From assembly GCA_001782475.1 (NCBI GenBank), contig MFOT01000008.1:1-53296 (forward strand): a stretch of DNA of 53,296 nt, read 5' to 3'. Below, in pieces: positions 9,068-50,229 of the stretch. The stretch comes from Candidatus Levybacteria bacterium RIFCSPLOWO2_01_FULL_38_21 (lineage in GTDB: Bacteria > Patescibacteriota > Microgenomatia > Levybacterales > UBA12049). The notes under the pieces are model-generated. The model did no database searches, was not told where the DNA came from, and saw only the letters and a list, made by a program, of their open reading frames with translations. A program made the position numbers and the translations under genes. Position 1 is the first letter of the stretch, and each line of letters opens with the position of its first letter.

Positions 9068-9097
9068 ATTATACCTTATCTGAGACAATCTATTCAA
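9068..9097 (-). promoter_or_regulatory. Putative rpsL promoter overlapping the 3' end of rpoC
   Basis: Minus strand reads TTGAAT (9097-9092), 18 nt spacer, TATAAT (9073-9068), then 10 nt to the rpsL ATG. Confidence 0.45.
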
Positions 9098-12000
9098 CCC
9101 CGCCGTTGGCGGGGTCAACTCCGATTTCATCGGACTCAACGGGAATAAGACGCCCAATAATTACATTTTCTTTAAGGCCGATAAGCTTATCCTCTTGTCC
9201 CTGAAGAACTGCTTCGGTAAGAACTTTGGTGGTTTCCTGAAAGGACGCGGCTGAAAGCCATGAATCAGAAAACAGAGAAGACTTAGTAATTCCTACTAAT
9301 ATTTGTCTCGCTGTTGCCGGTTCACCTCCCTGGGAAAGTATTCCGGCATTTATTTCTTCAAACTTAACTTTTGTTATAATATCCCCCGGGATCAAAGAAG
9401 TATTCCCAACTGTTTCTACAACAACTTTATCCGACATCTTCCTAAGAATTACTTCAAAATGTTTATCATTTATTGTTATCCCCTGTGATTCATAAACCCG
9501 CTGAGCCTCTCTAATAATATAGCGTTGCGCTTCAAGAATTCCCTTTATCTTTAGGATGTCTTTTGGGTCAATGTATCCTTGGGCAAGTTGGGTTCCTGAG
9601 GAAATCATATCCCCGTTGGAAACTGCAATTTCAGATGCTAGGGGTACAAAATACTCTTTCTCTTCCGGCGGTTTTACCCTTGCGTTTCTTATCCTTATGA
9701 TGTAACCATCCTCTGTTTTTTCGACCTTTACTTTTCCTGATATATTCGACATTGGAGCAAGGTTTTTTGGTGTCCTCATCTCAAATAGCTCCTCAACTCT
9801 TGGTAAACCTTGAGTAACATCAGACATCACGACCCCCCCAAAATGTCTGACTCTCATTGTAAGCTGTGTCCCGGGCTCTCCAATAGATTGCGCTGCAATC
9901 ACACCAACCGGAACTCCAACTTTTACTTTTCTTTTTGTCGAGAAGTCCCAGCCATAACAAGCGGCGCAAACTCCATATTCCATATTGCAGGTTAAAGGAG
10001 ATCTAACGTTTACTTCCTCAACCTCGTTTTCCAAAAGAAGTTTAAGCTTTTCTTCACCTATCTCCTCTCCCTCTCTTATTATCGGTTTTTTACTCTTTTT
10101 AGATACTATATTTGATGTAGTAGTTCGTCCTAAGATTCTGTCAAAAAATGTAGTTGTTCTGTCTATATCATCTTGTGCAATTAGAATTCCTTCTTTTACC
10201 CCACAATCCTCACCTCTTATAATTATATCGTGGGACACATCAACAAGTCTTCTTGTAAGATAACCTGCATTTGCGGTTTTCAATGCAGAGTCTGTTAATC
10301 CTTTTCGTGAACCGCGGGCTGACGCAACATATTCAAAAATCGAAAGTCCTTCTCTAAAATTTGATTTTATAGGAAGTTCAACAATTTTTCCAAGCGGATC
10401 TAAAATAAGCCCTCTAATTGCCGAAAGTTGCTTTACTTGCTCTTTTCCAGCTCGGGCTCCCTCGGAATCTATAATTACTTTTATTGGATTCTCAGGTTTT
10501 AATATCGACCATGTCTTGTTTGCTAGATCATCCGTTGCTTTAAGCCAAACTTCGTTTTCAAGTCTTTTTCTCTCTTCATTTGTTACAAGACCTTGCTGGT
10601 ATTCCGCTTCAATTTCTGTTATCTTCTTCTCGGCACTCTCAATAAGATTTTCTTTGTCCTCGACCATCTCATTGTCAAAGACCGAAACAGAAACCCCTGA
10701 AATTGTTGCACCGTAAAACCCTAAAGTTTTTATATTGTCGATAATTTTTTCTACCTCCTCCGCAGTTGAATTTGAAATTGCGTAGGTTATTATTCTTTTA
10801 ATACCGGACGCTTTAACTTGTTCATTGATGAATCCTAGAGATTGCGGAATTTGTTCATTAAAAAGTACTCTTCCAACTGTTGTTTCTATTATCTTATTAT
10901 CAACTCTTACTTTAATCGGTTCTCTAAACTTAATCTTTGAAAGAGATTGAGCAAGAATAGCTTCTTGAGTAGATTCAAAAACAGGCTGGATTTCCCTTCT
11001 TAAGCTCTCGTCTATGCTTGTTAGATAAAAAACTCCGACTGCCATCTCTTTATTCGGGAGTGTAATCGGACCTCCGTCAGCCGGCTTTAGAAGATTGTGT
11101 CTTGGCATCATAAGATTTATGGCTTCTTCTTTTGCAATATTAGATAAAGGAATATGAACTGCCATCTGATCTCCGTCGAAATCTGCATTATAACCTGCGC
11201 AAACGCATGGATGAAGGCTTATAGCAGACCCCTCAATCAAAACCGGATAAAAAGACTGTATTCCAAGTTTATGAAGCGTTGGAGCACGGTTTAATAAAAC
11301 TGGATGGTTTTTTGTTATTTCTTCCAAGATATCGAATACCTCTGCTGGTCTTTTTTCGATAAATCTTTTTGCAGATTTAATATTTGGGGCATATCCTCTT
11401 ATTATAACCTCTCTTAAAACAAATGGCTTAAACATTTCAAGTGCCATTTCTTTTGGAAGACCACACTGGGAAAGATCAAGTTGAGGACCAACAACAATAA
11501 CTGATCTTCCCGAATAGTCCACTCTTTTTCCCAAAAGATTTTGCCTAAATCTTCCCTGTTTTCCCCTAAGCATATCTGAAAGTGACCGCAGGGGTGAGGA
11601 AATAACTTGAGTAGTCCTCTGAGATACATCAATTAGAGCATCTACAGATTCCTGAAGCATTCTTTTTTCATTTCTTAAAATTATCTCAGGAGCTCCCAAA
11701 GACATCAAGTGTTTTAATCTGTTGTTTCTGTTAATTACTCTTCTGTATAAATCGTTAAGATCAGAGGTTGCAAATCTTCCTCCTGCAAGCTGAACCATTG
11801 GCCGCAAATCCGGAGGAAGAACAGGTAAAACCGTAATAATCATAGACAAAGGAGACACTCCAGCTTTGCGCATGGATTCAATAAGTCGTAGTCTCTTTAT
11901 AAGCTTTAGGTACTTTTGCCCTTTAGATTTCTCCGCTTCGCTTCTAAGCTTTATAATTAAATCTGATAGATCGATCTTACCAAGAAGCTCCAAAATTCCC

Positions 12001-12818
12001 TCTGCTCCTGTTCGCATTGAAAAAAAAACGGGAATATCGTATTCCAAAATTTTAAAGTATTCATCCTCCGAAAGCACTGTACCAATCCTTAAGTTTTTAA
12101 GAAGGTGAGACAAAGCTTCATAAATTTCATCAAGCTTTTTCTCTTCCTCTACAAGTCTTTCCGAAAGAGCTGCAATTTTTTGTCTTTGGACAAGCTCCAA
12201 TTCCTGATAAACAAGGTCTTTTTGCACTTTTGCAAGTTTCCCTTTTCTCACTTCATTCTTCTTCTCTTTAATTTCGCGCTCAATTTCTTTTTCCGCAAGA
12301 ACTATTTCATCTCTTTGCTGTTTTTTTCTTGTCTCAATATTTTTAAGGAATAAATCAAGTGCTTCCTTTTTCTTATTTTCATCTATATCTATTACCAAAA
12401 ATGATGCATAATAGATTACAGATTCAAGATTTCTCTGAGACATGTCCAAAATTAAAGAAAGGGGGGAAGTCGAACCTTTAAAGAACCACACATGGGCAAC
12501 TGGAGAGGCAAGGTTTATATGACCCATTCTTTCTCTTCTTACCCTTGATGTTGTAACCTCTACTCCACATTTATCACAGATAACGCCTCTGTGTCTTATT
12601 CTTTTGTATTTTCCACAATAACATTCCCAGTCTTTTGTAGGACCGAAGATTCTTTCGTCAAAAAGTCCATCCTTCTCCGGCCTTAGGGTTCTATAGTTAA
12701 TTGTCTCAGGCTTTGTTACCTCACCATAAGACCAGGAAAGGATATCGTCTTTATTTGCAAGAACAATCCTTAAAGACTTAAAATCTAAAATTGTAATATC
12801 TTTCATTTTTTTATTCAT
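9090..12818 (-). CDS. rpoC: DNA-directed RNA polymerase subunit beta'
   Basis: 1242 aa with the NADFDGDQM catalytic motif and zinc-binding CxC..C..C near the N-terminus. 8-nt overlap with rpoB. Confidence 0.97.
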   Translation of the reverse strand: MNKKMKDITILDFKSLRIVLANKDDILSWSYGEVTKPETINYRTLRPEKDGLFDERIFGPTKDWECYCGKYKRIRHRGVICDKCGVEVTTSRVRRERMGHINLASPVAHVWFFKGSTSPLSLILDMSQRNLESVIYYASFLVIDIDENKKKEALDLFLKNIETRKKQQRDEIVLAEKEIEREIKEKKNEVRKGKLAKVQKDLVYQELELVQRQKIAALSERLVEEEKKLDEIYEALSHLLKNLRIGTVLSEDEYFKILEYDIPVFFSMRTGAEGILELLGKIDLSDLIIKLRSEAEKSKGQKYLKLIKRLRLIESMRKAGVSPLSMIITVLPVLPPDLRPMVQLAGGRFATSDLNDLYRRVINRNNRLKHLMSLGAPEIILRNEKRMLQESVDALIDVSQRTTQVISSPLRSLSDMLRGKQGRFRQNLLGKRVDYSGRSVIVVGPQLDLSQCGLPKEMALEMFKPFVLREVIIRGYAPNIKSAKRFIEKRPAEVFDILEEITKNHPVLLNRAPTLHKLGIQSFYPVLIEGSAISLHPCVCAGYNADFDGDQMAVHIPLSNIAKEEAINLMMPRHNLLKPADGGPITLPNKEMAVGVFYLTSIDESLRREIQPVFESTQEAILAQSLSKIKFREPIKVRVDNKIIETTVGRVLFNEQIPQSLGFINEQVKASGIKRIITYAISNSTAEEVEKIIDNIKTLGFYGATISGVSVSVFDNEMVEDKENLIESAEKKITEIEAEYQQGLVTNEERKRLENEVWLKATDDLANKTWSILKPENPIKVIIDSEGARAGKEQVKQLSAIRGLILDPLGKIVELPIKSNFREGLSIFEYVASARGSRKGLTDSALKTANAGYLTRRLVDVSHDIIIRGEDCGVKEGILIAQDDIDRTTTFFDRILGRTTTSNIVSKKSKKPIIREGEEIGEEKLKLLLENEVEEVNVRSPLTCNMEYGVCAACYGWDFSTKRKVKVGVPVGVIAAQSIGEPGTQLTMRVRHFGGVVMSDVTQGLPRVEELFEMRTPKNLAPMSNISGKVKVEKTEDGYIIRIRNARVKPPEEKEYFVPLASEIAVSNGDMISSGTQLAQGYIDPKDILKIKGILEAQRYIIREAQRVYESQGITINDKHFEVILRKMSDKVVVETVGNTSLIPGDIITKVKFEEINAGILSQGGEPATARQILVGITKSSLFSDSWLSAASFQETTKVLTEAVLQGQEDKLIGLKENVIIGRLIPVESDEIGVDPANGGVE
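9097..9115. repeat. Family A hairpin ACCCCGCC-GTT-GGCGGGGT inside the last 9 codons of rpoC
   Basis: Perfect 8-bp stem read directly. Encodes ..DPANGGV.. of the rpoC C-terminus. Confidence 0.8.
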
Positions 12819-24075: not shown

Positions 24076-26366
24076 AACTTCCCCTTCTTCCGTTTCTTGA
24101 AAAAAAAGAGAGTAGGGAATATTTTTTAGCCCTAGTTCTTCGAAACGAAAAGGTAAATGCGGTATTCTTTGAAGAATCTTTGGGAAAAGTCAGTGTTTTG
24201 GGAAAACACAGCGAATATTTTGAAAATTCAATCGAGCAAGTCTCTTTAGAAGAGCTGTTAGGCATTTTGGATAAAGCAATTTCAACTGCCGAGCAGTCGC
24301 TTCCTGAAAATGTCGAGACAGTCAAAACAATCTTTGGAGTAAAAGGAAGCTGGGTTGAGGATAACAAAATAAAAAAAGATTATCTCTTAAAGCTTAAAAG
24401 GATAAGCGATGAGCTGGGACTTGTTCCGATAGGTTTTTTAGTTGCATTTGAAGCAATTGTACATCTTCTGCAAAAAGAGGAGGGCGCACCAGTCACTGCA
24501 ATTTTAGTCGAAACAGGAGAAAAATATGTTTCTGTAGCACATATTAAAGCAGGCAAAATTATAGAATCAAAAACATCGGAGATTATTGAGTCCCCCGCTC
24601 AAACAGTTGATAATCTTTTAAAACATTTTTCTTCTTCGGAGATTTTACCATCCAGAATTATTATTTTCAACGGCGATGAGGATGAAAGTCAGGAATTTAT
24701 AAATCACAGATGGAGTAAAAGTTTACCTTTTCTTCACCTTCCTCAGGCAACAACACTTCCTTTTGAATTTGACTCTGGAGCAGTTCTTTTTGGAGCGGCA
24801 CAACAGATGGGTTTTGAAGTTTTGGAAGATGGGATTTCGGAAATACCACCTGATAGCCTCGCGCTTGGCGGAGCTGGGAAAAAGGAAGAAATCCAAAAGA
24901 CGGAAGGAAAAAAAGAACTTGAAGATGAAGCAGTAACAGACAAGATTAAAAAAATTCCCGATGAAACTTCCGCAGAATACTTTGGTTTTGCAGAAGGTAA
25001 GGATATTTTAAAAGAACCTTTGCCAAAAGAGAAGATTCCGCAGGACATCGGACAAAAAGAGCTAAAGGAAAAAATTGAAGACCTGCCTGCCGGCAAGGCA
25101 GGAATACCGGAAGAACTTCCCCTTCCCTTAAACGCTCTAATGATTTTAGATGGATTAAAAAGTGTATCTGAAAAATTATTGAATATTCTAAAAAAACTTT
25201 CAACAGAAAAACTTGCCACGGGAATTCTAAGAGGTGGAAAAGGGATAATTATACCTGCGGTTTTAATTTTTTTAATTTTTATTCTTGCCATTGTCTATTT
25301 ATTTACAAATAAAGCTTCTGTTGTTTTAAATATTGATGGGAAAACAACAGATAAAACCCAAAATGTAACTTTTTCCCAAAAGCCTACAGATCCTCTAAAA
25401 AATATTATTCAGGGAGAATTTGTTTCTGTTTCCGAAGATGGAACTATCTCTACTCAATCAACTGGCAAAAAAGAAGTCGGTACAAATGCAAAAGGAACAG
25501 TAACTGTCTTTAATAATGCTCCCTCCTCTCAAACATTATCTAAGGAAACTACCATAACATCCTCAAACGGTCTTGATTTCACTTTGGACAAAAGCGTCAC
25601 TGTTTCTTCCGCATCGGGCGATATCTTTTCGGGTACCACACCTGGAAAAACAAGCGTTTCCGCAACTGCAAAACAAATTGGACAAGAATACAACCTCCCT
25701 TCTAATACGAAGTTTTCTATTTTGGGAAGTACTACAATGGCTGCAAAAAATGATAATCCTTTTTCCGGTGGAACAAAAAAAGAAATAACTGTTGTTTCAA
25801 AAGATGATATAGCAAAACTTCTCGAAGATCTTCCCAAAAACCTAGAACAAAAGGCGAAAGACGATCTTTCTAAGAAAGTCTCGGATGATAAGGTTTTGCT
25901 TCCTGTATTTATAAGTAGAACTATTAGTAAAAAAGATTTTGACAAAGATACAGGTGATGAAGCAAAACAAGTAACGCTTAAAGGGTCTGTTAATTTTGGA
26001 GGAATCGCTTATAAAAAAAGTGACAGTACTAGTTTTGCAAACGAGCTTTTGAAAACGAGTATCTCAGCCGATCTGACTGTTGATCCAAATAATATAAAAA
26101 TCAAGGTTAAAGATATAAAAGAAAATAAGAATAAAGAAGTAAATACAAATATAACCATAGTAGGAACTCTTGTTCCAAAGATTGATGAGGAAAAACTTTC
26201 AAAACAGATTTCCGGAAAGTCTTTTAAAAAAGCCGAAGAGATTCTAGAAAGACTTCCGCAGGTTTCTGGTGTAGATATTAATCTTTCTTTTAACATTCCG
26301 TTTTTCCCAAAGCGACTTCCCTTTTCGTCAAAAAATGTAAAAATTACAACTAAAATAAATGGGTAA
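24072..26366 (+). CDS. Bitopic membrane protein: actin-like (FtsA/PilM-type) N-terminal domain, charged linker, one TM, then an extracellular S/T/K-rich domain of about 350 aa
   Basis: The N-terminal block LGLVPIGFLVAFEAIVHLL..APVTAILVETGEKYVSVAHIKAGKI resembles the FtsA/PilM ATPase core. TM segment IIIPAVLIFLIFILAIVYLF. ATGA overlap with alaS and 8-nt overlap with the sortase gene. Confidence 0.45.
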   Translation: MKLPLLPFLEKKESREYFLALVLRNEKVNAVFFEESLGKVSVLGKHSEYFENSIEQVSLEELLGILDKAISTAEQSLPENVETVKTIFGVKGSWVEDNKIKKDYLLKLKRISDELGLVPIGFLVAFEAIVHLLQKEEGAPVTAILVETGEKYVSVAHIKAGKIIESKTSEIIESPAQTVDNLLKHFSSSEILPSRIIIFNGDEDESQEFINHRWSKSLPFLHLPQATTLPFEFDSGAVLFGAAQQMGFEVLEDGISEIPPDSLALGGAGKKEEIQKTEGKKELEDEAVTDKIKKIPDETSAEYFGFAEGKDILKEPLPKEKIPQDIGQKELKEKIEDLPAGKAGIPEELPLPLNALMILDGLKSVSEKLLNILKKLSTEKLATGILRGGKGIIIPAVLIFLIFILAIVYLFTNKASVVLNIDGKTTDKTQNVTFSQKPTDPLKNIIQGEFVSVSEDGTISTQSTGKKEVGTNAKGTVTVFNNAPSSQTLSKETTITSSNGLDFTLDKSVTVSSASGDIFSGTTPGKTSVSATAKQIGQEYNLPSNTKFSILGSTTMAAKNDNPFSGGTKKEITVVSKDDIAKLLEDLPKNLEQKAKDDLSKKVSDDKVLLPVFISRTISKKDFDKDTGDEAKQVTLKGSVNFGGIAYKKSDSTSFANELLKTSISADLTVDPNNIKIKVKDIKENKNKEVNTNITIVGTLVPKIDEEKLSKQISGKSFKKAEEILERLPQVSGVDINLSFNIPFFPKRLPFSSKNVKITTKING
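25082..25102. repeat. Family B palindrome (CCTGCCTGCCGGCAAGGCAGG), in-frame copy
   Basis: Encodes LPAGKAG in the linker of the 764-aa protein. Related to the exact copies at 29993 and 44778. Confidence 0.75.
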
Positions 26367-28584: not shown

Positions 28585-29541
28585 ATGAAAAGGTTTATTA
28601 TTCTTTTAGCAGTATTGCTTTTGTTTGCCGGTGCGACTGTTCTCTGGTGGAAAAACGGAAGTCGGGCCCAAGATCCAGCAAATAAAAGCTCTCAAATTTT
28701 CGTAGTTGTAAAAGGTGAGGGTGTTAGGGAAATTGCGAATAGTCTTAAGACAAAAGGACTGATTAAAGATCCTATTGTTTTCTTTCTTCAAACAAAAAGA
28801 TTAGGACTTGATAAAGATTTGGAGGCAGGGGATTTTAGATTAAGTCCATCTATGAGCCTCTATACCATTATTCAGAATCTAACTCACGGAACTTTAGATA
28901 TATGGATTACAATTCCCGAGGGAATAAGGGCGGAGGAAATTGCAAATATTCTTAAAAAGGGTATTCCATCGTACAAACCGGATTGGAGAGAAACTCTTGC
29001 AACAAGGGAGGGTTATCTATTCCCCGATACTTACCTTATTCCAAGAGACGCCGATATAAATCTTGTAATGTCGCTTCTTAATAATAATTTCGGCAATAAA
29101 TACGATGGGGTCGATGCAGAAAAAACAGGACTTTCGCAAGAAGAGATAGTAACGATCGCATCATTGGTTGAGCGAGAAGCAAAGCTTGCGCAAGACCGCC
29201 CTTTGGTAGCAAGCGTGATACTTAACAGACTTGGTATAGGCATGAAGTTGGATATTGATGCAACAGTTCAGTACGCATTGGGATATCAAGAAAATGAAAA
29301 AACATGGTGGAAGAAAAATTTAACAAAAGATGATCTTAAAATTAACTCTCCTTACAATACTTATAGAAATGCCGATTTGCCCCCTTCGCCTATTTCAAAC
29401 CCGGGACTTTCTTCTATTATGGCCGTCGTAAATCCTTCAAAAACTAATTATCTTTACTATGTCTCTGATAAATCCGGCCACTTGCATTTTGCAACAACAC
29501 TTAAGGAACAAAACGTAAATATAGAAAAATATGGATTATAG
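28585..29541 (+). CDS. mltG: Endolytic murein transglycosylase MltG (YceG-like)
   Basis: 318 aa with an N-terminal TM and YceG-type blocks (EGYLFPDTY, ASLVEREA, NRL...LDIDATVQYAL, YNTY...LPP.PI.NPG). Confidence 0.9.
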   Translation: MKRFIILLAVLLLFAGATVLWWKNGSRAQDPANKSSQIFVVVKGEGVREIANSLKTKGLIKDPIVFFLQTKRLGLDKDLEAGDFRLSPSMSLYTIIQNLTHGTLDIWITIPEGIRAEEIANILKKGIPSYKPDWRETLATREGYLFPDTYLIPRDADINLVMSLLNNNFGNKYDGVDAEKTGLSQEEIVTIASLVEREAKLAQDRPLVASVILNRLGIGMKLDIDATVQYALGYQENEKTWWKKNLTKDDLKINSPYNTYRNADLPPSPISNPGLSSIMAVVNPSKTNYLYYVSDKSGHLHFATTLKEQNVNIEKYGL

Positions 29542-29560
29542 ATTCAAAAATATAAAGCGA

Positions 29561-29620
29561 GGAACAAATTTTTTCGCTGGACGTCAAGCGAATTGCGGGT
29601 CCGAGAAAAAATTTAGTTCC
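29561..29620. terminator. A/T-rich inverted repeat between convergent mltG and the ytxH-like gene (possible bidirectional terminator)
   Basis: GGAACAAATTTTTTC (29561-29575) pairs with GAAAAAATTTAGTTCC (29605-29620), with one bulge. Confidence 0.35.
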
Positions 29621-29635
29621 GAGCGAGTTTAATGG

Positions 29636-29965: not shown

Positions 29966-29966
29966 A

Positions 29967-30257: not shown

Positions 30258-30290
30258 GCTTAATTAAAGATAGCATTGAGAAAGTTCTGT

Positions 30291-30397
30291 GTCAACCCCG
30301 CACCAAAATGATAAAACTAGAACTTAAAAGATCAATTCAAGCTGGTATTTAAACTTAACCCAACTCTATGAATTTAAATACTTGGTGCGGGGTCAAC
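30291..30397. repeat. MITE-like unit: GTCAACCCCGCACCAA ... TTGGTGCGGGGTCAAC inverted repeats around a 75-nt AT-rich core
   Basis: 12-bp perfect complementarity (ACCCCGCACCAA / TTGGTGCGGGGT). The GTCAACCCC end sequence also occurs at the rpoC family A copy. Confidence 0.6.
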
Positions 30398-30421
30398 CCG
30401 GATTAAATATAACAAACAATT

Positions 30422-31054
30422 TTACTTTATAATCACGCGGCGTTCAATTCTTGTCTGTTTGCCAAAGCGGTTTACTGCCTTTACAATTATTGTTGTTTTT
30501 CCGGGAAATCCTGTAATTTCCTTTCTAAAAGTCCCGTCAGTATTTACCGAAACAGGCTCATCATTGACTGTGATAGTTGAGTTAGGATCTGTTTTTCCCA
30601 AAACCAAAATTGTTGATGATGATAAAACTGCCATTTCCGTTGGACTAGTTAATTTAATTGGAGGACTTATAAAAGCATATCGATATTGAAAAATTATAAA
30701 TCCCGAAAGAAGTATAAAAAGAAGTATTATCAAAATTACAGCCTGCTTTATTTTAAACCTCTTAAGCGGCATTTCTTTTTGCTCTACCAATCCCTCGGGT
30801 AAAACTTTATAGACTTTTTCTTGATCAAACTCACGCCTAAAGAGAGCTAATATTTCCTTTTCTTCAAGATCTAAAAATTTTGCGTAATTTCTAACAAATC
30901 CTTGTGCATAAGAAAAGGAAGGGAGTTTGTCATATTCCCCTTTTTCTATTGCGAAAAGAAACTCGACTCTTATTTTTGTTGCGTTTGAGATATCCTCAAG
31001 AGTAAGTTTTTTTTTAGTACGCTCATCTTTGAGTTTTTGACCGGCTCGTATCAT
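30422..31054 (-). CDS. RodZ-like HTH membrane protein
   Basis: N-terminal XRE-type HTH (LTLEDISNATKIRVEFLFAIEKGEY), a central TM, and a C-terminal beta-rich domain. ATG 31054 lies 5 nt after the ftsK stop. Confidence 0.6.
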   Translation of the reverse strand: MIRAGQKLKDERTKKKLTLEDISNATKIRVEFLFAIEKGEYDKLPSFSYAQGFVRNYAKFLDLEEKEILALFRREFDQEKVYKVLPEGLVEQKEMPLKRFKIKQAVILIILLFILLSGFIIFQYRYAFISPPIKLTSPTEMAVLSSSTILVLGKTDPNSTITVNDEPVSVNTDGTFRKEITGFPGKTTIIVKAVNRFGKQTRIERRVIIK

Positions 31055-31059
31055 TATCA

Positions 31060-33165
31060 CTATTGATTGAGACTATTGATAATCTCATCGGCATTCCTAA
31101 TCAGGACATCTCTTGGCTTTGAACCCTCTGCGTGTCCTACAATTTCTGCCTCCTCAAGCTGATCCAAAATTCTTGCCGCTCTTGAGTAACCAATCGAGAG
31201 TCTCCTTTGAAGTAAAGACGCAGAAGCCCTATCATGCTGACAGACTATTCTTATTGCTTCCTCAAAAAGCGAATCTCTTCCATCTGCGCCCGAAGAAACG
31301 CCGGCTCTTCTTGTAACAAGCGGGCTTTTGGTAACTTCTTCTGTGTATTCAACAGGCGGTCCTTTTTCCCTAAGGAAGCCAACAAGTTTTTTAACTTCTT
31401 TTTCCGAAACAAACGCACCTTGTATGCGGGTAGGTTTTGCTTGATCAGGCGGAATATAAAGCATATCCCCCCTCCCCAAAAGCTTCTCAGCACCCGGCAT
31501 ATCGATAATTACCCTTGAGTCAACCATCGAAGAAACATTAAAAGCAATTCTGCACGGAATATTTGCTTTAATAAGTCCTGTTATAACATCCACAGACGGT
31601 CTTTGCGTTGAAACAACCAAATGAATTCCTGTTGCTCTTGCCATTTGAGCAAGACGGGTAATAGCATCTTCAACCTCAACCGGTGCAAATGCCATAAGAT
31701 CGGCAAGTTCATCTATAAAAATAATAATATAAGGAAGCACTTGAAATCCCGAAAGTTCATTATAAGAATCGATATTCCTGACTCCCCTTTCCGAAAATTT
31801 TTTATATCTTTCGTCCATTTGATTCATTGCCCATTTTAAAGATGCAAGAATTTTCTCAACATCCACAATTACCTGTGTCATAAGATGGGGAATGCCATTA
31901 TATCCGGTAAGCTCTACTCTCTTAGGATCTATAAGAATTAATTTAACTTCCCAGGGTGCTGCTCTGAAAAGAAGAGATGATATAAAAGAATTAATTAGAA
32001 CTGATTTTCCTGATCCGGTTGTTCCAGCAATCAAAACATGGGGCATTGTTGCAAGATCCGCCACAACTGGATTGCCGGAGACATCAAGACCCAAAGAAAC
32101 AGTGAGCTTTGACTTGCCTTTCCTCATTGTCTCTGATTCAAGCATGGTTTTAAGGGTAACTATCTCAAGGCTTCTGTTTGGAATTTCAATTCCAACTAGG
32201 TTTCTTCCTGGAATCGGCGCTTCAATTCTTATCTGTCCTGTCGGAGCTTCGGTTGCCAACGCAAGATCATTTGATAAAGATGTGATCTTAGAAACCTTAG
32301 TTCCCAATGCAATCTCAAGCGCGTATTGTGTTACCGCAGGTCCTAAGTTTACCTCAACAACCTTTGCTCCTATTGCAAAGCTCTGAAGAGTACTCTCAAT
32401 TTTAGCTGCAATCTTTTTTATATCTCCTCTATCAGCCTTTTGAGGCGTTGAGTCTGATAAAAGCGAAGTCGAAGGATATTCCCAAACCAAGCCAGAAGAG
32501 AGAGGATTGGCAACAAGTTTGTCTGAAAGAAAACCAGATTCTTTTTTAGAAGGTGAAACAATCAATTCGCGTGAAGACAAAGATGGGAATTCTCTTAGTC
32601 CGCCTTTTATTGTTAATTGTCTGTCTTTTATTCCCGCAGGCCCTCTGTTCTTGAAAAAAGAAAACAACTTCGTTGGAAAAAGTCTTAAGATACTCTTTAC
32701 AACAAAAGCTCCTGCGTCCAGCAGCTCATCAATTGAAGTATCAAAGAGAACAATAACACCAACGAAAATACCTGCTATATAAACAACATTTGCTCCAATT
32801 CCGGTTAATACATCTGCTAAGATTTTAAAAAGATATTCTCCAACTTTTCCTCCTTTTATTAAAGCGTCCAAAGATATAAAAAGAAGAAAAAAACCTATGG
32901 AAACGTTGGGACGGGAAAGAAAAAATCTAAGCCTTAAAAAGAAAAAACCTAAGAGAATCAGAACAATAGGAAATAAGATCGATATTGAACCGAAATATTT
33001 ATCCAAGTATTGGGTTATTAAAATAAAAGATGGTTGGCTTTTTGAAAAAGAAAGGAGAAGAATCAGCCCCGAAATAATAAGCCCAAAGGAAAAAATTGAA
33101 TAAATTGTAGTTTTTTTAAGTTTTAACTTGAACTTCTGTCTTCTGTAATGTTTTCTTCTTGCCAT
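31060..33165 (-). CDS. ftsK: DNA translocase FtsK/SpoIIIE
   Basis: 701 aa with N-terminal TM segments, Walker A GTTGSGKS, and a C-terminal winged-helix gamma-like domain (SASLLQRRLSIGYSRAARILDQLE). Confidence 0.9.
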   Translation of the reverse strand: MARRKHYRRQKFKLKLKKTTIYSIFSFGLIISGLILLLSFSKSQPSFILITQYLDKYFGSISILFPIVLILLGFFFLRLRFFLSRPNVSIGFFLLFISLDALIKGGKVGEYLFKILADVLTGIGANVVYIAGIFVGVIVLFDTSIDELLDAGAFVVKSILRLFPTKLFSFFKNRGPAGIKDRQLTIKGGLREFPSLSSRELIVSPSKKESGFLSDKLVANPLSSGLVWEYPSTSLLSDSTPQKADRGDIKKIAAKIESTLQSFAIGAKVVEVNLGPAVTQYALEIALGTKVSKITSLSNDLALATEAPTGQIRIEAPIPGRNLVGIEIPNRSLEIVTLKTMLESETMRKGKSKLTVSLGLDVSGNPVVADLATMPHVLIAGTTGSGKSVLINSFISSLLFRAAPWEVKLILIDPKRVELTGYNGIPHLMTQVIVDVEKILASLKWAMNQMDERYKKFSERGVRNIDSYNELSGFQVLPYIIIFIDELADLMAFAPVEVEDAITRLAQMARATGIHLVVSTQRPSVDVITGLIKANIPCRIAFNVSSMVDSRVIIDMPGAEKLLGRGDMLYIPPDQAKPTRIQGAFVSEKEVKKLVGFLREKGPPVEYTEEVTKSPLVTRRAGVSSGADGRDSLFEEAIRIVCQHDRASASLLQRRLSIGYSRAARILDQLEEAEIVGHAEGSKPRDVLIRNADEIINSLNQ

Positions 33166-33216
33166 ATAAATTATTATATACGCTTAAATTACGCAGTACA
33201 AGTTAAACTTAGTGTT

Positions 33217-33594
33217 TTATCTCGGAGTGGAAACGGAGTATAGCTTTATTTGAGGCATAGAGAAGTGTTTTTTGTTGTAGGTAACCAATGTAAGCTTGTT
33301 GACAACAGCTGTTGCCGCAATAAACATATCCGCTATATCGAGTTTATATTTTTGTTTAAATTCTCCAGTTAATTCTGCTATTTCTTCTGTTATATCAAGG
33401 GGCTTAAATATATTTTTCAATTCTCGAATTATTTTCTTTGCATCTTTAGTTAATCCAGCTCTTATTTCTGCGATAGTAACGACTGAGGTAAATAGCTCCC
33501 CTTTCCTCGAAAGTTCTTCTAATAATTGTACCTCTTTATCTCGCCCTTTAAGATACCAAATAATAATGTCTGAATCTATCAAAAACTTATCCAC
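33217..33594 (-). CDS. vapC: PIN-domain toxin VapC
   Basis: DKFLIDSDIIIWYL..., ..TIAEI.. and ..DMFIAATA.. PIN acidic positions. GTG start at 33594 overlaps the antitoxin stop by 8 nt. Confidence 0.75.
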   Translation of the reverse strand: MDKFLIDSDIIIWYLKGRDKEVQLLEELSRKGELFTSVVTIAEIRAGLTKDAKKIIRELKNIFKPLDITEEIAELTGEFKQKYKLDIADMFIAATAVVNKLTLVTYNKKHFSMPQIKLYSVSTPR

Positions 33595-33865
33595 GAATTC
33601 TTTTGGAGAAACGCTTCTCCGCAGAAATCCATAGGGATTTCCGCCATGCTGTAAGTTCTTTGTCAGATTTAAAAGAAATCCCACCAGCTTTTTCCCAAAT
33701 GCCTTTCAATTTTTTAAAACTTTTCTCTCTTTTCATTTTTGCGATTTCTTCACCAAGAGCTTTGGCAATAATCCTGCTTCTCTCTCTTTTAGGAATTGAC
33801 CCTCTTAATTCGGAGATTAGTTCCTTCGGTAGTGTAATATTTATTCTAGAAACAGTAGTAGCCAT
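33587..33865 (-). CDS. vapB: Ribbon-helix-helix (CopG-like) antitoxin VapB
   Basis: 92 aa. The N-terminal RINITLPKELISEL...RSRIIAKAL is a typical RHH. Confidence 0.7.
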   Translation of the reverse strand: MATTVSRINITLPKELISELRGSIPKRERSRIIAKALGEEIAKMKREKSFKKLKGIWEKAGGISFKSDKELTAWRKSLWISAEKRFSKRIRG

Positions 33866-34078
33866 ATTCAGTCAATACTAATAATACACACTACTAATAC
33901 ACATGTCAAGCCCAGAAAATCATTTATCCTCCCGCCACAACCATGCGGAGTCCTTGGATAATTCGAACTCTAACTTTCCAGCCTATTTTTAGCTCATTCG
34001 AGTCTGAGCCTAAAGGTTCATACCTCAGAGTCGAAGACCTCAAAAAACTATATCAAACTGAACAACCGCTACTATGAT

Positions 34079-34107
34079 TTGAACTTTAAGCTTAAATATG
34101 GTATAAA
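34079..34107 (+). promoter_or_regulatory. Promoter of the orphan gene at 34115
   Basis: TTGAAC (34079-34084), 17 nt spacer, TATAAA (34102-34107), then 7 nt to the ATG at 34115. Confidence 0.5.
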
Positions 34108-34114
34108 TTCGGTC

Positions 34115-34618
34115 ATGACAGAAGCAGTTGGCCAATCTTCAGGTTCCGCAAGGGAGGCAAATAGAACGCCTGACAAAGGTTATGGCGAGTGGTTTGATAA
34201 TTTGTTAGCGTCACTCGATTCTAAGATAGCAGAAGGAATAGAAGCATACCCATCTCTAGCTTATTGGAGTAGAGAAGTTTTAGTAGGAAATCAGCTTTTA
34301 TCAACTATAACAGGCTTAGAACGCGGTAATGCCTTTCGTGATCGTCTTACCCGACTTTATAAACTTTTTGAAGTAGCGATATATCCTAATTTAAATCCAA
34401 ACGAACAAAGAGAATTAAGAAACCATTTTAGAATGAGCAGAATGCAACCTGATGATGACATGCCCCTTACGCTTGATGAACAGTTAATGGGAGATTTACA
34501 GCAACTATGGAGAGTTTGTCGCTTAGATGTACCTACCGATGAACAAAAGAATGATATCCCTGAGGTTTTAAAGCAAACTGTAGTTGATTTTGATTCACTT
34601 GTTTATCAAGGAAAATAA
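34115..34618 (+). CDS. Hypothetical protein, no family recognised
   Basis: 167-aa ORF. The start was trimmed because the track's TTG start is the -35 box. Flanked by 249 nt and 290 nt of ORF-free DNA. Confidence 0.45.
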   Translation: MTEAVGQSSGSAREANRTPDKGYGEWFDNLLASLDSKIAEGIEAYPSLAYWSREVLVGNQLLSTITGLERGNAFRDRLTRLYKLFEVAIYPNLNPNEQRELRNHFRMSRMQPDDDMPLTLDEQLMGDLQQLWRVCRLDVPTDEQKNDIPEVLKQTVVDFDSLVYQGK

Positions 34619-34908
34619 TTTAACAGGTAATACTGCTCCGACTTCTGATAAACTAGCTCAGGATATTTGATTATTTCAGCCCAATCAGAAGTTCAAAATC
34701 AGCAGTTCAGAAACAAGAATTGCCTACAGTTACCACGCCAAGGCAGAATTTATGCCACTCATGCCACTTCAGGAGTGAAATTGAATTGACACCTCGGAAA
34801 TTACACGTCCAAAATCACCGAGACCACAAGGGGCTTTTTTTCTCTTTTTTTAAGAGAGGTAATCAAAGAGGAGTGTCTTCTTCTTGCCATTTTATCTATT
34901 ATATTCTC

Positions 34909-36600
34909 TCACACTTCTATAACAACCGGCAATACCAAGGGGCGGCGGTGAAGATGTTTTAAAACTGATTTTTCCGCAATCTCTCCTATCTTTTTTCTTA
35001 TATACATCCAATCGCTTACTCGTCCTTTTTTTGTACTGAACCCGTCCTTAATGTCCTTTGCCAGTTTTTTGTTTGCAGTCCTTACTTCCTGATTGGATAA
35101 TCCCCGAGAAATTATGGTCGGATAATCAACTATTTGGCCGGTCTGCGAATCTATTTCGACAACTACAATTATTACTCCATCCTTTGAAATTTTTTGCCTG
35201 TCCCGAAGAATAAAACTTTCTATTTCTTCTCCAGAGATTTCATCAACAAATACATTTTTAACAGGTATTTTTCTACCTAGTACTGCCTCATCTTTTGAAA
35301 AAATAATTTCCTGTCCATCTTCAATTAAAAACATATCTTTATCCTCAAATCCCTGTCTTTTTGCCAAATTTTTATAAGCTACCATTTGTCTATATGTCCC
35401 TCCGATTGGAATCAATTTTTTGGGTCTGGTCAATTCCATAAGAAGCATTAAGTCATCGGCTGATCCGTGTCCAGAAACATGAAAATCATCTGTAATTTGC
35501 GAGTAAACAACTTTTGCCCCTTTTTTTGCAATACTATCTATTAATGAGTTTATTGATACTTCATTTCCCGGTATTGGATCTGCTGAGAAAACAATAACAT
35601 CTTTTGGGGAAATCGAAATTTCCCTATGCTCCCCATTTACAATTCGAGACAAGGCAGAATTCTCCTGCGCCTGACTGCCGGCAACAAGAAGCAAAAGCTG
35701 GGAGTCTTTATATTTTTTAATTTCATTGATATCAACTTCCATGCCTTTCTCAAGCTTCATATAGCCTAGTTTTTGAGCAATTGTTGATGTATTTATTAAA
35801 GATCTTCCGACAAAAACAACTTTTCTTTCAAGTTTTTGGGCGGCTTGTATTGCCTGGTTAAGTCTTGAGATATTAGAAGAATAAGTAGTTAATATAAATT
35901 TTCCTTCGCAGTTTCGCATCTGCGCTTCTATATTTTCCGCCAAGACTTGCTCTGATTTTGTAAACCCTTCTTTTTCTGCTCTAAGACAATCAGAGGCTAG
36001 ACAGAGAATTTCTTCATCTGCTGCTTTTGAAATTTTTAAAAAATCGGTTTTTTTACCATCAAAAGGGGTTAGATCAAACTTAAAGTCGCTTCCATGATAA
36101 AAATTCCCAACTGGAGTTTTTATAAAAATATGGCTACTGTCTGGAATTGAATGAGTAACTCTAATAAAAGAAATTGTAAAGCTACCAAGCTTTATTTCTC
36201 CATCTTCATAATTAACAGCTTTCACCCTAACAGGAATTCCAAATTCTTCTAACTTCTCATTGGCAAGTCCTGCTGTTAGGGGACCTGCAAAAATAGGAAA
36301 AGAAAAACCTGTCTTTTTTGCAAGCTGGGGAAGAATAAAAGGGAGAGCGCCTGTATGATCTTCATGTCCATGTGTTAAAGCCATCCCGACTATTTTTTTA
36401 TTTACCCCGCCAGAGGCGGGGTTTGTCAAGAGTAAATAGGAAATATCCGGGAGAAGCAGATCTACTCCAAGCATTGTTTCATCTGCGAAACCTAAACCGC
36501 AGTCAATAATAAGAACCTCATCTTTATATTCATATAAATACATGTTTCTTGTAACATCACCAATGCCTCCAAGTGGAATAAATGATACTTGATTTTTCAT
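34909..36600 (-). CDS. rnj: Ribonuclease J (metallo-beta-lactamase / beta-CASP)
   Basis: 563 aa with the THGHEDHTGALP motif, beta-CASP blocks, and a C-terminal domain. Confidence 0.9.
   Translation of the reverse strand: MKNQVSFIPLGGIGDVTRNMYLYEYKDEVLIIDCGLGFADETMLGVDLLLPDISYLLLTNPASGGVNKKIVGMALTHGHEDHTGALPFILPQLAKKTGFSFPIFAGPLTAGLANEKLEEFGIPVRVKAVNYEDGEIKLGSFTISFIRVTHSIPDSSHIFIKTPVGNFYHGSDFKFDLTPFDGKKTDFLKISKAADEEILCLASDCLRAEKEGFTKSEQVLAENIEAQMRNCEGKFILTTYSSNISRLNQAIQAAQKLERKVVFVGRSLINTSTIAQKLGYMKLEKGMEVDINEIKKYKDSQLLLLVAGSQAQENSALSRIVNGEHREISISPKDVIVFSADPIPGNEVSINSLIDSIAKKGAKVVYSQITDDFHVSGHGSADDLMLLMELTRPKKLIPIGGTYRQMVAYKNLAKRQGFEDKDMFLIEDGQEIIFSKDEAVLGRKIPVKNVFVDEISGEEIESFILRDRQKISKDGVIIVVVEIDSQTGQIVDYPTIISRGLSNQEVRTANKKLAKDIKDGFSTKKGRVSDWMYIRKKIGEIAEKSVLKHLHRRPLVLPVVIEV
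36404..36422. repeat. Family A hairpin ACCCCGCC-AGA-GGCGGGGT, in-frame copy inside rnj
   Basis: Perfect 8-bp stem. Encodes NPASGGV about 10 residues before the HGHEDH metal site. Confidence 0.8.
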
Positions 36601-36601
36601 T

Positions 36602-37690
36602 TTAGGTTGGTAAAAACTGCTTATAGTTTTCCGATGTTATATGAACATAAGAATCCTGAGGAACTTTTCCCTCAACAATAAGTCTTGCCGTTTTTCTGCA
36701 TACTCCCTCAATTGTCCGCTCTAAACTTCTTATTCCGGCATCAAATCCCAAAGGCCTTATAATAAATGGCCAAACACTATCATCAATTACAGGCTGATTA
36801 TCCGATAGTCCTGTTTGCTTGCGGATTTTTGGGAAAAGATAACTTTTTGCAATAGCCAATTTTTCCTCATCTGTGTAGGATGGCATTTGAACAACCTCAA
36901 GTCTGTCTAAAACCGCAGTTGAGATGTTTGTCGTATTATTTGCGGTTGCAACGAATAAAACGTGAGAAAGATCAAATGGATAATCAATATAATGATCGGT
37001 GAAAAATTTATTTTGTTCAGGATCTAAGAGTTCGACTAAAACACCCATAATATCTGCTCTTGCACCTTCTGTCACCCTGTCCAGCTCATCTAGGAGAATA
37101 ACCGGATTTTTGGAGGAAGCATTAACTATTTTTTTGATAATCTCTCCCGGTTCTGCATCAGCAAAGGATCGCGATTGTCCGCGAAGCGCTCTTGCGTCCC
37201 CCATCCCTCCAAGAGGAATCCTCTCAAATTTTCGCCCAAGAGACTCTGCAATAGAATAGGCAAGCGTTGTTTTACCTGTTCCAACTAGTCCGATAAGACA
37301 AAGTATCGGAGCTCTTATTATTCCTTCTCCCGGCTCATTCTGCATAGTTAAAATAATTGATGATAAATATTCAAGAATTCTATTTTTAACGCTTAAAAGC
37401 CCGTAATGATTTTTATCGAGTATCTCTTTTGCGCGGTGAAGATCCAAGATATCTTTTGTTTCTTTATTAAAAGGCAGAGATGTGACCCAATCTACATAAT
37501 TTGAGATATTCTCAAAGTTTATAAATGACGCGTTCCCGCTTTTTAAAGATGCTCGCAGGAGATCAATCATGCCTTCTATTTTTTCCAAAAGGTCTGAAGG
37601 CAAATTAGAAGCTTTTATTTTCTCCGAAAGTTTTTGAATCTGAACGTCTAAGGACTGGGTAGAATTATCCATGTATTTATAATACAACAA
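36602..37690 (-). CDS. Lon-like AAA+ ATPase without LAN or protease domains
   Basis: 362 aa that aligns by eye to the Lon coiled-coil plus AAA+ module (YVDWVTSLPF, HYGLLSVKNRILEYL, Walker A GLVGTGKTT, Walker B ILLDELD, LDPEQN, LDRLEV). The ORF ends at the AAA/protease boundary. Confidence 0.8.
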   Translation of the reverse strand: MLYYKYMDNSTQSLDVQIQKLSEKIKASNLPSDLLEKIEGMIDLLRASLKSGNASFINFENISNYVDWVTSLPFNKETKDILDLHRAKEILDKNHYGLLSVKNRILEYLSSIILTMQNEPGEGIIRAPILCLIGLVGTGKTTLAYSIAESLGRKFERIPLGGMGDARALRGQSRSFADAEPGEIIKKIVNASSKNPVILLDELDRVTEGARADIMGVLVELLDPEQNKFFTDHYIDYPFDLSHVLFVATANNTTNISTAVLDRLEVVQMPSYTDEEKLAIAKSYLFPKIRKQTGLSDNQPVIDDSVWPFIIRPLGFDAGIRSLERTIEGVCRKTARLIVEGKVPQDSYVHITSENYKQFLPT

Positions 37691-43815: not shown

Positions 43816-45351
43816 TTATCCATGAGATATTATCACATCTCCTATAGTAAAGTCAAGGAAAGGTGAAATGATTATACCAGCTTCATTGCCCTTTTCTACT
43901 TTTGAGATGGGATTTTTACCTTGCCTTAAAGATGAAATTACACTCTCTCCAATTACCTCATCTTTTCTAACAAGCCTTATCTTATCTCCCTTAGCCATTC
44001 TTCCCTCAAGTACCGCAACTCCCATAACTTTTGTTTTTTCAAATGGAAACTGCGCAACTACTTTTGCTTTCCCTAAATTTTCTTCAACAAGAGAAAGTTC
44101 TCTACCCTCTAAAACATCTGTTATTTCATCGATCAGTTCATAAATAAGATTGTAATTTTTAACAACCACTTCCTCTGTCTTTGCAAGTTTTATGATTTCC
44201 GGCTTAATTTTTATATTAAATCCAAGAACAATTGCACCGACTCCCTTTGCAAGCAAAAGATCTGCGGGCGAGATATCTCCTGTTTTGTAAGATACAATAT
44301 TTATCTGATTTGGCAAGGCATTTATTATTGCCTCTAAGGAACCTAAAGTATCCGCGCAAATTATTAATGAGAGAATTGGTAGGTTTTCAGAAAAAGGGGT
44401 GACACGACTGGAAGGGCTCCCGACAGCGCGCATCTCCGATGTAATCGGAGGAGCACTGACGGGAGGGAAAGTCGGGGCAGGACCCCGTTGATTCAAAACA
44501 CGAAATTTTTTCAAAACTATACTTCCGACTTTAGGAACTTTTTCAAAGCCCAAAATTTCAACTGCTTCGCCTATTGTTACCTTGTCTACTTTTTTTCCCG
44601 AAGCATCAGTAAGACTTTTCACTTTTCCAAAGACTCCATTGCTTGATATCTCATCTCTTAAAGATAATGTCCCGCTTTTAATGACAACTGAGGATAGCGG
44701 CCCTGATCTTTGATCTTGCTTTGATTCAATAACCACACCCTTAAATTCTCCGCTTTCGGAAGAAATAAATTTTTCCTGCCTGCCGGCAGGCATAGCTTTT
44801 TTTATCTCAAAAACTAGAAGAATAAGATCCAAAAGTTCTTTAATATTTGTATTTGTTTTTGCGGATACTTCTACTACCGGCACATCGCCGCCGTATCCTT
44901 CAAGAAGAACTTCTGCTTTTAAAAGCTCTCGTTTTGCTTTTTCGGGATTTTTTTCGGCAAGATCAGATTTTGTCAAAACAACAATAAAAGGGATATCAAC
45001 CTCTTTTAATAATTTTATACTTTCTCTAGTCTGCGGCATTACTCCGTCAACAGATGAAACAACCAAAAGCCCGATATCTGCCGCCATAATTCCTTTTCCT
45101 CTCATATTAGAGAATAGTTCATGCCCGGGTGTATCTATAAAAGTGATAGCCTTTTTCTCGCCTTCATTTATAAATTCTATTTTTGATGCGCCAATTCTTT
45201 GAGTAATTCCCCCATATTCTTTTTGTGCAACATTTGATTTGCGGATTGTATCCAAAAGGGCAGTCTTTCCGTGGTCTACGTGGCCTACTACGGCAACAAC
45301 CGGGGGGTAGAATTTTTTATTTGGCGGATTTGGTTTTTGTTTTTTTGCCAT
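43816..45351 (-). CDS. infB: Translation initiation factor IF-2, short form
   Basis: 511 aa that starts almost directly with the G domain ([24 protein letters not shown]). Carries two in-frame GC-rich insertions. Confidence 0.95.
44417..44465. repeat. 49-nt nested imperfect palindrome inside infB
   Basis: Inner stem CTCCGAT-GTA-ATCGGAG (44434-44450). Outer arms CTCCCGACAG / CTGACGGGAG match 9 of 10. Embedded in a GC-rich stretch coding [25 protein letters not shown]. Confidence 0.65.
44778..44793. repeat. Family B palindrome GCCTGCCGGCAGGC(AT), in-frame copy inside infB
   Basis: 16 nt identical to 29993-30008. Encodes MPAGR. Confidence 0.85.
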
Positions 45352-47412: not shown

Positions 47413-47469
47413 GAAGATTAATGATATCTTGACACCCCAGGAATTATTTATCGCTACCTACGAGATAAT

Positions 47470-49857: not shown

Positions 49858-49858
49858 T

Positions 49859-50170
49859 TTATGAAAAAAATAAAAATACTGTTGCAACAGGCCATAAGAT
49901 AAATGAAACAAAAAAGATTATTTCAAGAAAGATTAGTAAAGAAAATAATATTAAGTCTGCGATTATTACAAATGACTTGATAAAAATTCCCATAGCGACC
50001 GAAAATACAACTAATCCCTTCCTGTACTCGTTTTTCCATGGCTTAAAATAGGTTCTTATTAAAAGGGGGAGCGACAAAAGCGCAAGCATTGAATTGTTTA
50101 ACGAGGAAAAAAATCTTATGAGTCCTATCGGAGCTTCAAAAAACCAAAATTTTAAAAAAATTATCACCAT
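49859..50170 (-). CDS. Small polytopic membrane protein
   Basis: 103 aa, strongly hydrophobic. Its stop lies 1 nt before the Clp-like ATG. Confidence 0.45.
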   Translation of the reverse strand: MVIIFLKFWFFEAPIGLIRFFSSLNNSMLALLSLPLLIRTYFKPWKNEYRKGLVVFSVAMGIFIKSFVIIADLILFSLLIFLEIIFFVSFILWPVATVFLFFS

Positions 50171-50210
50171 CTTTTTTTAGTTTAAGAGGTTTCTCTATAA
50201 ATTGCAATTC

Positions 50211-50229
50211 ACCCCGCCAAAAGCGGGGT
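50211..50229. repeat. Family A hairpin ACCCCGC-CAAAA-GCGGGGT immediately after the M28 peptidase stop
   Basis: 7-bp perfect stem, intergenic. May act as an intercistronic or terminator hairpin. Confidence 0.75.

Follow-up and report, generated by a model that had tools for sequence, protein, structure and literature searches.

The DNA analysed here, referred to as the window, is a contig of 53,296 nt (MFOT01000008.1; contig C8 of our genome G000) from Candidatus Levybacteria bacterium RIFCSPLOWO2_01_FULL_38_21, and our subject is Family A, a short GC-rich palindrome that stands in or beside several of its genes. G000, the genome under study, is an ultra-small genome of the Levybacteria, a lineage of the candidate phyla radiation (CPR, Patescibacteria), and comprises 788 kb with 37% G+C in 28 contigs. 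It was compared with three congeners (G001, G002 and G003), with G009 from the next genus and with more distant relatives. Gene calls were the longest open reading frames (ORFs), and the comparisons with metagenomes (runs X9, X14, X15 and others) were based on contigs, not on reads. The genes around the Family A sites, almost all on the minus strand, include rpoC and rpsL, an unnamed gene at 30422-31060, the RNase J gene rnj and a gene for an M28 peptidase (Table 1).

Table 1 Features of the Family A sites in the window
Feature	Position	Strand	Description
rpsL promoter	9068-9097	-	-35 TTGAAT 9092-9097, 18-nt spacer, -10 TATAAT 9068-9073; ATG 9057
TCAA flanking repeat (coding strand TTGA)	9094-9097	.	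read directly; first four bases of the -35 TTGAAT
Family A core, rpoC unit 2	9098-9114	-	coding strand CCCCGCC-AAC-GGCGGGG; D-P-A-N-G-G-V region
Middle TCAA copy between the tandem rpoC units	9115-9118	.	layout TTGA/core/TTGA/core/TTGA
rpoC unit 1, sister subfamily	9119-9135	-	G-TCCGAT-GAA-ATCGGA-G, encodes (V)ESDEIG; then TCAA 9136-9139
Hairpin site with nested insert	30292-30396	-	TCAA, CCCCGCACCAA, 75 nt, TTGGTGCGGGG, TCAA
Nested AT-rich segment of about 80 nt in the loop of the 30291 hairpin	30301-30387	.	single-copy in G000
Left flank TTTA of the rnj core	36401-36404	.	right flank TTTG 36422-36425; coding strand TAAA/CAAA
Family A core in rnj	36405-36421	-	coding strand CCCCGCC-TCT-GGCGGGG; with the flank 36422-36425 it makes the 21-nt insertion
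Family A-like core past the M28 peptidase gene	50212-50228	-	CCCCGC-CAAAA-GCGGGG; flanks TTCA 50208-50211, TTTA 50229-50232

Family A at the four sites of the window

A preliminary description of the window had reported three compact copies of the palindrome and one relative, and direct reading placed all four where it had put them. At 9097-9115, ACCCCGCC-GTT-GGCGGGGT falls within the final codons of rpoC (minus strand), where it is translated as DPANGGVE-stop, and at 36404-36422, ACCCCGCC-AGA-GGCGGGGT lies in rnj, where NPASGGV forms residues 60-66 and HGHEDH residues 77-82. Both coding copies thus read P-A-x-G-G-V, as had been noted. The third copy (50211-50229) is present and starts 1 nt past the M28 stop codon, but with a 7-bp stem and a 5-nt loop it falls outside the strict N3 formula under which it had been listed. 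The relative at 30291-30397 is built on a 12-bp inverted repeat, ACCCCGCACCAA, at 30295-30393, with a 75-nt loop and GTCAAC on both sides. This flank, which the rpoC copy was said to share with it, is indeed common to both and corresponds to the duplicated target TCAA/TTGA described below.

The rpoC copy had also been placed on the -35 of the rpsL promoter, and TTGAAT (9092-9097) does abut the hairpin, with one base in common. On the coding strand, CCC and GTTGA are followed by G-TCCGAT-GAA-ATCGGA-G, TTGA, CCCCGCC-AAC-GGCGGGG and TTGA-ATAG, that is, by two tandem 21-nt units bounded by TTGA. The 30291 hairpin, 25 nt past the stop codon of the gene at 30422-31060, has the same relation to a promoter: in a promoter scan, a -35 TTGACA (30290-30295, minus strand) directly follows it on the coding strand. 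Two copies of the window thus stand immediately before promoters because TTGA belongs to the -35 box. The rpsL -10 is only about 10 nt from the ATG, a spacing found again at the gene starting at 30257, and this suggests that the rpsL mRNA may be leaderless.

Filled sites, empty sites and the 21-nt unit

Comparison with related genomes revealed the same sites with and without the palindrome. The DNA alignment of rnj showed a 21-nt insertion in G000 opposite a gap in G001, G002 and G009, and the protein alignment showed an empty site in 25 further relatives, G000 being the only filled genome among 30. The empty site of G001 reads ACAAAC-AAAAAA. The same loop contains in G003 a 24-nt insert that is not a hairpin, perhaps a decayed copy, perhaps an independent event, and in three other relatives unrelated small inserts, and RNase J of Thermus thermophilus (3BK1) has a 7-residue gap exactly opposite NPASGGV. 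Since the relatives and the Thermus enzyme lack this peptide, PAxGGV is not a conserved part of RNase J. The preliminary description had named conservation of PAxGGV in unrelated bacteria as an outcome that would speak against it; of the 30 relatives, 29 lack the peptide in RNase J, as does Thermus, and it is missing from almost every RpoC tail.

Other coding sequences gave a similar picture. The serine hydroxymethyltransferase (SHMT) gene glyA is filled in the congener G001, where it encodes ANPAKGG, and empty in G000, which has a single GTAAAC; a thioredoxin-like gene contains the core in G019, and its product is 7 residues shorter in G000. With the gene of the single-stranded DNA-binding protein (SSB), the functional protein genes that carry the palindrome in frame are therefore rnj, rpoC, SSB, glyA of G001 and the thioredoxin-like gene of G019. 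Gain and precise loss of the 21-nt unit are not always separable in such comparisons.

At the end of rpoC, a contig of run X14 that is about 95% identical to positions 9070-9300 is without exactly 21 nt at 9100, and these are the CCCCGCC unit. This unit 2 is missing from G001, G003 and most of 78 Levybacteria. Homologues of unit 1 were found in G015, G017, L137, L155 and L103, and decayed ones in G001-G003, L158 and L159. G002 has a 21-nt unit before GTTGAAG, and G001 has none. A 21-nt unit follows GTTGA in about 11 of the 78 Levybacteria species, belonging to at least three separate clades, with a pristine junction in sister species; tandem double units at the same TTGA occur in G000 and L159. 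The common junction has the form CCN-GTTGAAGG...17 nt...GTATAAT-ATG(rpsL), and GTTGAAG...GTATAAT is kept upstream of rpsL in most of the 78. In most Levybacteria, the last rpoC codons are thus at the same time the -35 and -10 of the rpsL promoter, the TAA of TATAAT being the rpoC stop codon.

At the place orthologous to 30291, G002 and G003 have a plain hairpin, GTCAA-CCCCGAT-CAA(A/C)T-CGGGG-TCAA, and G001 differs; relatives in runs X14 and X15 have an empty site in which CTGTCAA is followed directly by CCGTAAC, and a relative in X9 has a decayed hairpin. The nested segment of about 80 nt is absent from the three congeners, and no second copy of the 75-nt interior was found in the genome. The right flank TTTA of the M28 copy (50229-50232) contains the M28 stop codon. 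In G001 this site has the same length and identical flanks, with 7 of 19 positions changed, six of them by GC-to-AT transitions, which marks the M28 unit as an old copy, now in decay in G001. Decay by GC-to-AT transitions was likewise seen in the rpoC unit 1 homologues of G001-G003.

From these sites a common anatomy emerged. The unit consists of a 17-nt palindromic core, with a 7-bp stem (CCCCGCC or CCCCGAT) and a freely varying loop of usually 3 nt, flanked by a 4-nt direct repeat that is mostly TCAA/TTGA or TAAA; the net gain per insertion is 21 nt, or 7 codons. The 4-mers beside the core form direct repeats at each of the four sites: TCAA/TCAA in rpoC and at 30291, TTTA/TTTG in rnj, alike at 3 of 4 positions, and TTCA/TTTA after the M28 gene. 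For 28 CCG(CC/AT)-N3 hairpins of G000, the flanks agreed at 1.82 of 4 positions compared with 1.20 in the null model (p<0.0005), and the same test at other offsets was not significant. For 29 hairpins from 28 other genomes, agreement was 2.66 of 4 compared with 1.59 (p<0.0002), and 11 of the 29 had perfect 4-nt repeats, the 4-mers being TCAA, TTGA, ATAA, TTAA, TCCA, CTCG and CTAA. Since the flanking 4-mers vary between copies, they are derived from the target, and the unit is 17 + 4 = 21 nt. [quoted passage not shown]

Two other descriptions of the flanks were tried. A 6-nt target repeat, GTTGAC, was only marginal (p=0.07), and the 4-nt repeat beside a 17-nt core fits better; a tetranucleotide carried by the element itself, as in IS608, was rejected as the source of the repeat because the repeated 4-mers differ between copies. 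Two palindromes of G000 lie outside the model and seem to belong to other families: the hairpin in the L10 gene (C9:450), which has a longer loop, and a DHH palindrome (C24:83505), which has larger nested flanks. The former, CCCCGC-14 nt-GCGGGG at C9:433-500, is translated and flanked by a 13-nt direct repeat, AAAATGGAAAATG, a layout that does not fit 17 + 4 nt.

The anatomy also explains how the palindrome is read in genes. Translation passes through a copy because 21 nt are seven codons and the stem is free of stop codons. The core appears as P-A-x-G-G or P-P-x-A-G, and valine follows PAxGG because the final G of the core is joined to the T of the repeat. The frame common to rpoC and rnj had been attributed to the self-complementarity of the stem, but a palindrome accounts only for indifference to orientation and not for frame. 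Nor is there a single frame, as other copies use a second one (for example, T-P-P-K-A-G in SSB). The shared frame arises from the position of the 4-nt target within the codon; no long ORF was seen to use the third frame, P-R-x-x-R-G.

We conclude that Family A is probably a family of miniature palindromic insertion elements with a 17-nt core and a 4-nt target repeat. The preliminary description had correctly recognized one repeat family that is translated in rpoC and rnj and recurs between genes, but it had missed that the copies are 21-nt insertions which are polymorphic, decay and come with a target-site repeat.

An origin of each hairpin in place as a functional RNA (a terminator, an attenuator or a 3′-end stabilizer), with their likeness due to convergence, appears very improbable to us. 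In its favour, gene ends are where three of the four copies in the window lie, on the coding strand, and the hairpins are stable as RNA, at -15 to -17 kcal/mol (-16.3 kcal/mol in rnj; at the rpoC end, -17 kcal/mol for unit 2 and -8 kcal/mol for unit 1). It would also agree with the rpoC tail, where the units of different species stay paired although both arms have changed in a coordinated way, and the encoded amino acids with them (GAT/ATC, GAC/GTC, GGC/ACC, GCC/GGC); it is the nucleic acid palindrome, and not the peptide, that is maintained or re-introduced there. However, the copies in rnj, glyA and SSB are internal to coding sequence, the rpoC/rpsL junction is free of a hairpin in most Levybacteria, sister species show copies in decay, and convergence leaves both the 4-nt flanking repeats and the constant size of 21 nt unexplained. 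Furthermore, no U-tract of the kind required for intrinsic terminators follows the hairpins, whose tails are UUGAAUAGAUUG (rpoC), UAAAUAAAAA (rnj) and UGAAUUGCAAUU (M28), and a terminator scan of positions 29500-37500 listed no Family A copy. The terminator reading was rejected for the missing U-tracts. Rfam 15 at the gathering score gave no match in the whole window, a tRNA/tmRNA scan of the window found none, and the sequence was absent from three small metatranscriptomes of a related study. The copies at gene ends may still have some use at the RNA level, for example as a barrier at 3′ ends.

Distribution and candidate enzymes

Frequency had been the other point on which the preliminary description was prepared to fall, and the pattern is far above what composition predicts. 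CCCCGCN{3,9}GCGGGG matched three times in the window and never in 100 dinucleotide-preserving shuffles, and CCCCGCC-N2-6-GGCGGGG occurred 30 times in 31 related genomes compared with once for the reversed control. G000 contains nine CCCCGC...GCGGGG hairpins, six of which have the form CCCCGCC-N2-6-GGCGGGG, and 54 hairpins of the wider type CCGnn-loop-nnCGG compared with about 7 in shuffles. The CCCCGAT/TCCGAT sister subfamily is more abundant than CCCCGCC: its form CCGAT-N3-ATCGG gave 228 matches in the 31 genomes and 20 for the control. Identical 13-17-mers reappear at unrelated loci and in unrelated lineages. The same letters, with no differences, were found in contigs of independent metagenome runs (the rnj hairpin in those of all four runs), and the pattern is therefore not an assembly artefact. 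With empty shuffles, an almost empty reversed control and identical sequence in several independent runs, we attach practically no probability to chance or artefact as its source.

In G000, 12 of 28 copies lie outside long ORFs, where 12.7% would be expected (p=7e-5); selection against most coding insertions would produce such an excess. Further copies were found in rRNA and in spacers. Across the phylum, the strict CCCCGCC-N3 form has a patchy distribution: a scan with T...A flanks matched only 8 of 401 genomes.

Several other palindromes were seen on the way. A CCGAT-GTA-ATCGG hairpin at 44436-44448 of the window, in a gene for a 511-aa protein, reads PPITSEM and has a palindromic extension and no flanking repeat. 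Six CCGAT-type hairpins are packed into 3.6 kb of G028 (C6:76024-79622). TCCGCC-AAA/TCT-GGCGGA hairpins at C5:2239, C6:2271, C13:8393 and C18:17661 of G000 encode an FSAKGGPASGW-like peptide in four unrelated proteins and are probably part of a larger repeat unit. A second palindrome, called Family B in the preliminary description, has the form (CC)TGCCTGC-CG-GCAGGCA(GG), occurs in about a dozen coding sequences (25082-25102 and 44777-44792 of the window, and on C5, C10, C11, C21, C24 and C27) and is nearly always read as LPAGRQ or LPAGKAG.

What was observed of Family A as insertion elements is its anatomy, the polymorphism of the insertions, the target repeat and the decay; the copying itself would be due to an enzyme acting on the hairpin. 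Insertion would duplicate, or come with, a 4-nt target, preferably TCAA/TTGA or TAAA, and would add 21 nt. Where a protein loop or tail tolerates it, a copy would simply be translated, as P-A-x-G-G-V or P-P-x-A-G. Copies pile up directly upstream of promoters at gene ends because the -35 hexamer includes the target TTGA and would be regenerated by the target duplication. Thereafter, copies would stay perfect or decay by GC-to-AT substitutions.

As to the enzyme, the first candidates are the RAYT (REP-associated tyrosine transposase)-like Y1 (HUH) transposases, which would make the hairpins ordinary repetitive extragenic palindromic (REP) elements and the family part of the REP/REPIN-RAYT system. 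Enzymes of the IS200/IS605 type act on hairpins beside a specific tetranucleotide, and G000 encodes five Y1_Tnp/RAYT-like proteins (C24:4827-5417, C20:4467-5132, C2:27870-28562, C28:14098-14745 and C1:12438-12815). Across the 31 relatives, genomes with more of these genes tend to have more CCCCGCC hairpins (Spearman 0.61; presence/absence, Fisher p=0.008), a correlation made, like that for GIY-YIG genes below, with no phylogenetic correction. However, each of the genes is flanked by a different hairpin, CACCCC-N-GGGGTG, and not by Family A. The Family A copies have no GTAG or CGTC tag, their flanks being TCAA, TAAA, TTCA and similar, and the varied 4-mers behave like genuine duplications of the target, of which HUH transposition makes none. 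Moreover, the correlation with RAYT genes concerns the CCCCGCC subfamily; the CCGAT subfamily is abundant in the RAYT-free genomes G003 (18 copies) and G006 (13 copies). We therefore consider mobilization by RAYT quite unlikely. The CACCCC-N-GGGGTG hairpin has about 18 copies in G000, mostly intergenic.

The second candidates are small GIY-YIG nucleases encoded in cassettes at tRNA genes. The hairpins would then not be self-propagating but a by-product: the nuclease would cut TCAA-like sites, and repair would copy in a hairpin module borne by the cassette. All 31 relatives have GIY-YIG matches, with 2-12 in each genome and for the most part ORFs of about 80-130 aa, and their counts track those of the CCGAT hairpins (Spearman 0.55, p=0.0015). 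In G024, G026 and G028, a duplicated tRNA fragment next to the ORF has a hairpin with a TCAA/TTGA repeat in its D-loop, and in G002 a CCCCGCC hairpin takes the place of the anticodon arm in the tRNA-Gly copies on both sides of the ORF. About 6 of the 75 listed hairpins are within 300 nt of such an ORF, compared with about 0.5 expected. On the other hand, no window copy is near a tRNA or GIY-YIG gene, GIY-YIG counts show no such relation to CCCCGCC counts (rho 0.17), and the two kinds of element may lie together only because both gather in DNA that tolerates them. The known nucleases of this kind leave 2-nt overhangs (PMC2330249). Taken together, an origin of the hairpins as a by-product of these cassettes is unlikely.

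The tRNA-adjacent GIY-YIG ORFs with a hairpin-bearing partial tRNA duplicate are L207-L210 (G002:C60, G026:C14, G028:C2 and G024:C2), the D-loop hairpins being in copies of tRNA-Arg, tRNA-His and tRNA-Lys. In G000, C25:17650-18600 contains tRNA-Ala, a spacer with two Family A-type hairpins and the 5′ end of the 23S rRNA gene. The 23S sequence there has a further hairpin and an intervening sequence that encodes a GIY-YIG protein of 83 aa and is bracketed by CCCCTCACC...GGTGAGGGG; the same hairpin, with an 11-bp stem, occurs in the 16S rRNA (C23:1064) and at C2:40972 and C18:4917.

A bolder form of the insertion-element reading, which we put forward tentatively, is that the 17-nt hairpin ranks with the smallest self-propagating units of DNA known: it would insert with 4 bp of duplicated target, have a frame-neutral footprint of 21 nt and be spread by a structure-specific enzyme so far not recognized as a transposase. 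It may have spread in this way through Levybacteria and other CPR, with the 80-130-aa GIY-YIG proteins at tRNA genes as candidate enzyme, and its preference for TTGA may bring hairpins to operon junctions and lengthen the tails of proteins such as RpoC. Several points weigh against the interpretation of Family A as insertion elements. No enzyme is tied to the Family A units, and a 17-nt element is far below any transposase substrate known to us. We know of nothing about GIY-YIG nucleases that predicts 4-nt duplications, and true target duplications argue against the HUH/RAYT route. Some flanks agree at only 2-3 of 4 positions, and where an outgroup is lacking, loss by slippage between 4-5-nt repeats cannot be told from gain. 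Finally, the compensatory changes in the rpoC tail could instead stem from selection for a functional hairpin there alone.

Comparison with known systems

If the interpretation as insertion elements holds, essential conserved genes of bacteria with minimal genomes (those of RNA polymerase beta′, RNase J, SHMT and SSB) tolerate translated selfish DNA, and 7-residue inserts encoded by GC-rich DNA should not pass as functional motifs specific to a lineage. The anatomy of 17 + 4 nt with the target TCAA/TAAA can be used for annotation, for dating insertions between strains and for the search for the enzyme, which, once found, would define a minimal DNA substrate for insertion. We found no description of such elements in CPR/Patescibacteria in the literature.

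Like MITEs, Family A has inverted ends and target duplications, but MITEs are 50-500 bp long and derive from an identifiable insertion sequence (IS), whereas the core here has 17 nt. No parent IS ending in CCCCGCC or CCCCGAT was seen, the search not extending to the DDE families of transposases. A further comparison is with the small dispersed repeats (SDR) of cyanobacteria, for which PMC3116915 cites Elhai et al. (2008, Genome Res 18:1484). These repeats are about 20-30 nt long and nest in one another; Family A resembles them as a short repeat of non-autonomous type with inverted ends and target duplications.

With REP/REPIN elements, which are GC-rich hairpins of 20-40 nt in many copies and sometimes intragenic, Family A shares its general appearance and the presence of RAYT-like genes in G000. 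REPs are recognized by a tetranucleotide, GTAG or CGTC, that is conserved on one side of their palindrome, at its end (Di Nocera 2013). Family A differs in having no such tag, in its target-site repeats and in that the RAYT genes stand beside another hairpin.

The Rickettsia palindromic elements (RPEs) lie in frame in many unrelated, functional housekeeping genes and are translated (PMC10969869; PMC3733652). Family A likewise consists of a palindrome inserted in frame into functional protein genes, but most RPEs are about 100-150 bp long and encode a conserved peptide, while Family A has 17 + 4 nt, belongs to another phylum and has a defined 4-nt target repeat.

The GC clusters of fungal mitochondria are roughly 30-60 nt long, with AG or TAG as terminal repeats. 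They are GC-rich palindromes in an AT-rich genome, mostly intergenic with in-frame insertions in var1, and their short terminal repeats are read as target-site duplications, their loops change fast and the activity that mobilizes them is unknown (PMC8811140); in Neurospora mitochondria, GC-rich palindromes flank tRNA genes (PMC8811140). Family A shares with them the scattered short GC-rich palindromes, also found in frame, the fast-changing loops and the repeats read as target duplications. It differs from these organellar elements in being bacterial and in its 17-nt core, its 4-nt TCAA/TAAA repeat and its frame-neutral 21 nt. Should the enzyme of Family A be found, it would connect elements of bacteria with the mitochondrial GC clusters, which have long gone unexplained. 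The yeast mitochondrial GC clusters, the Rickettsia RPEs and intragenic REPs are the closest described counterparts of Family A.

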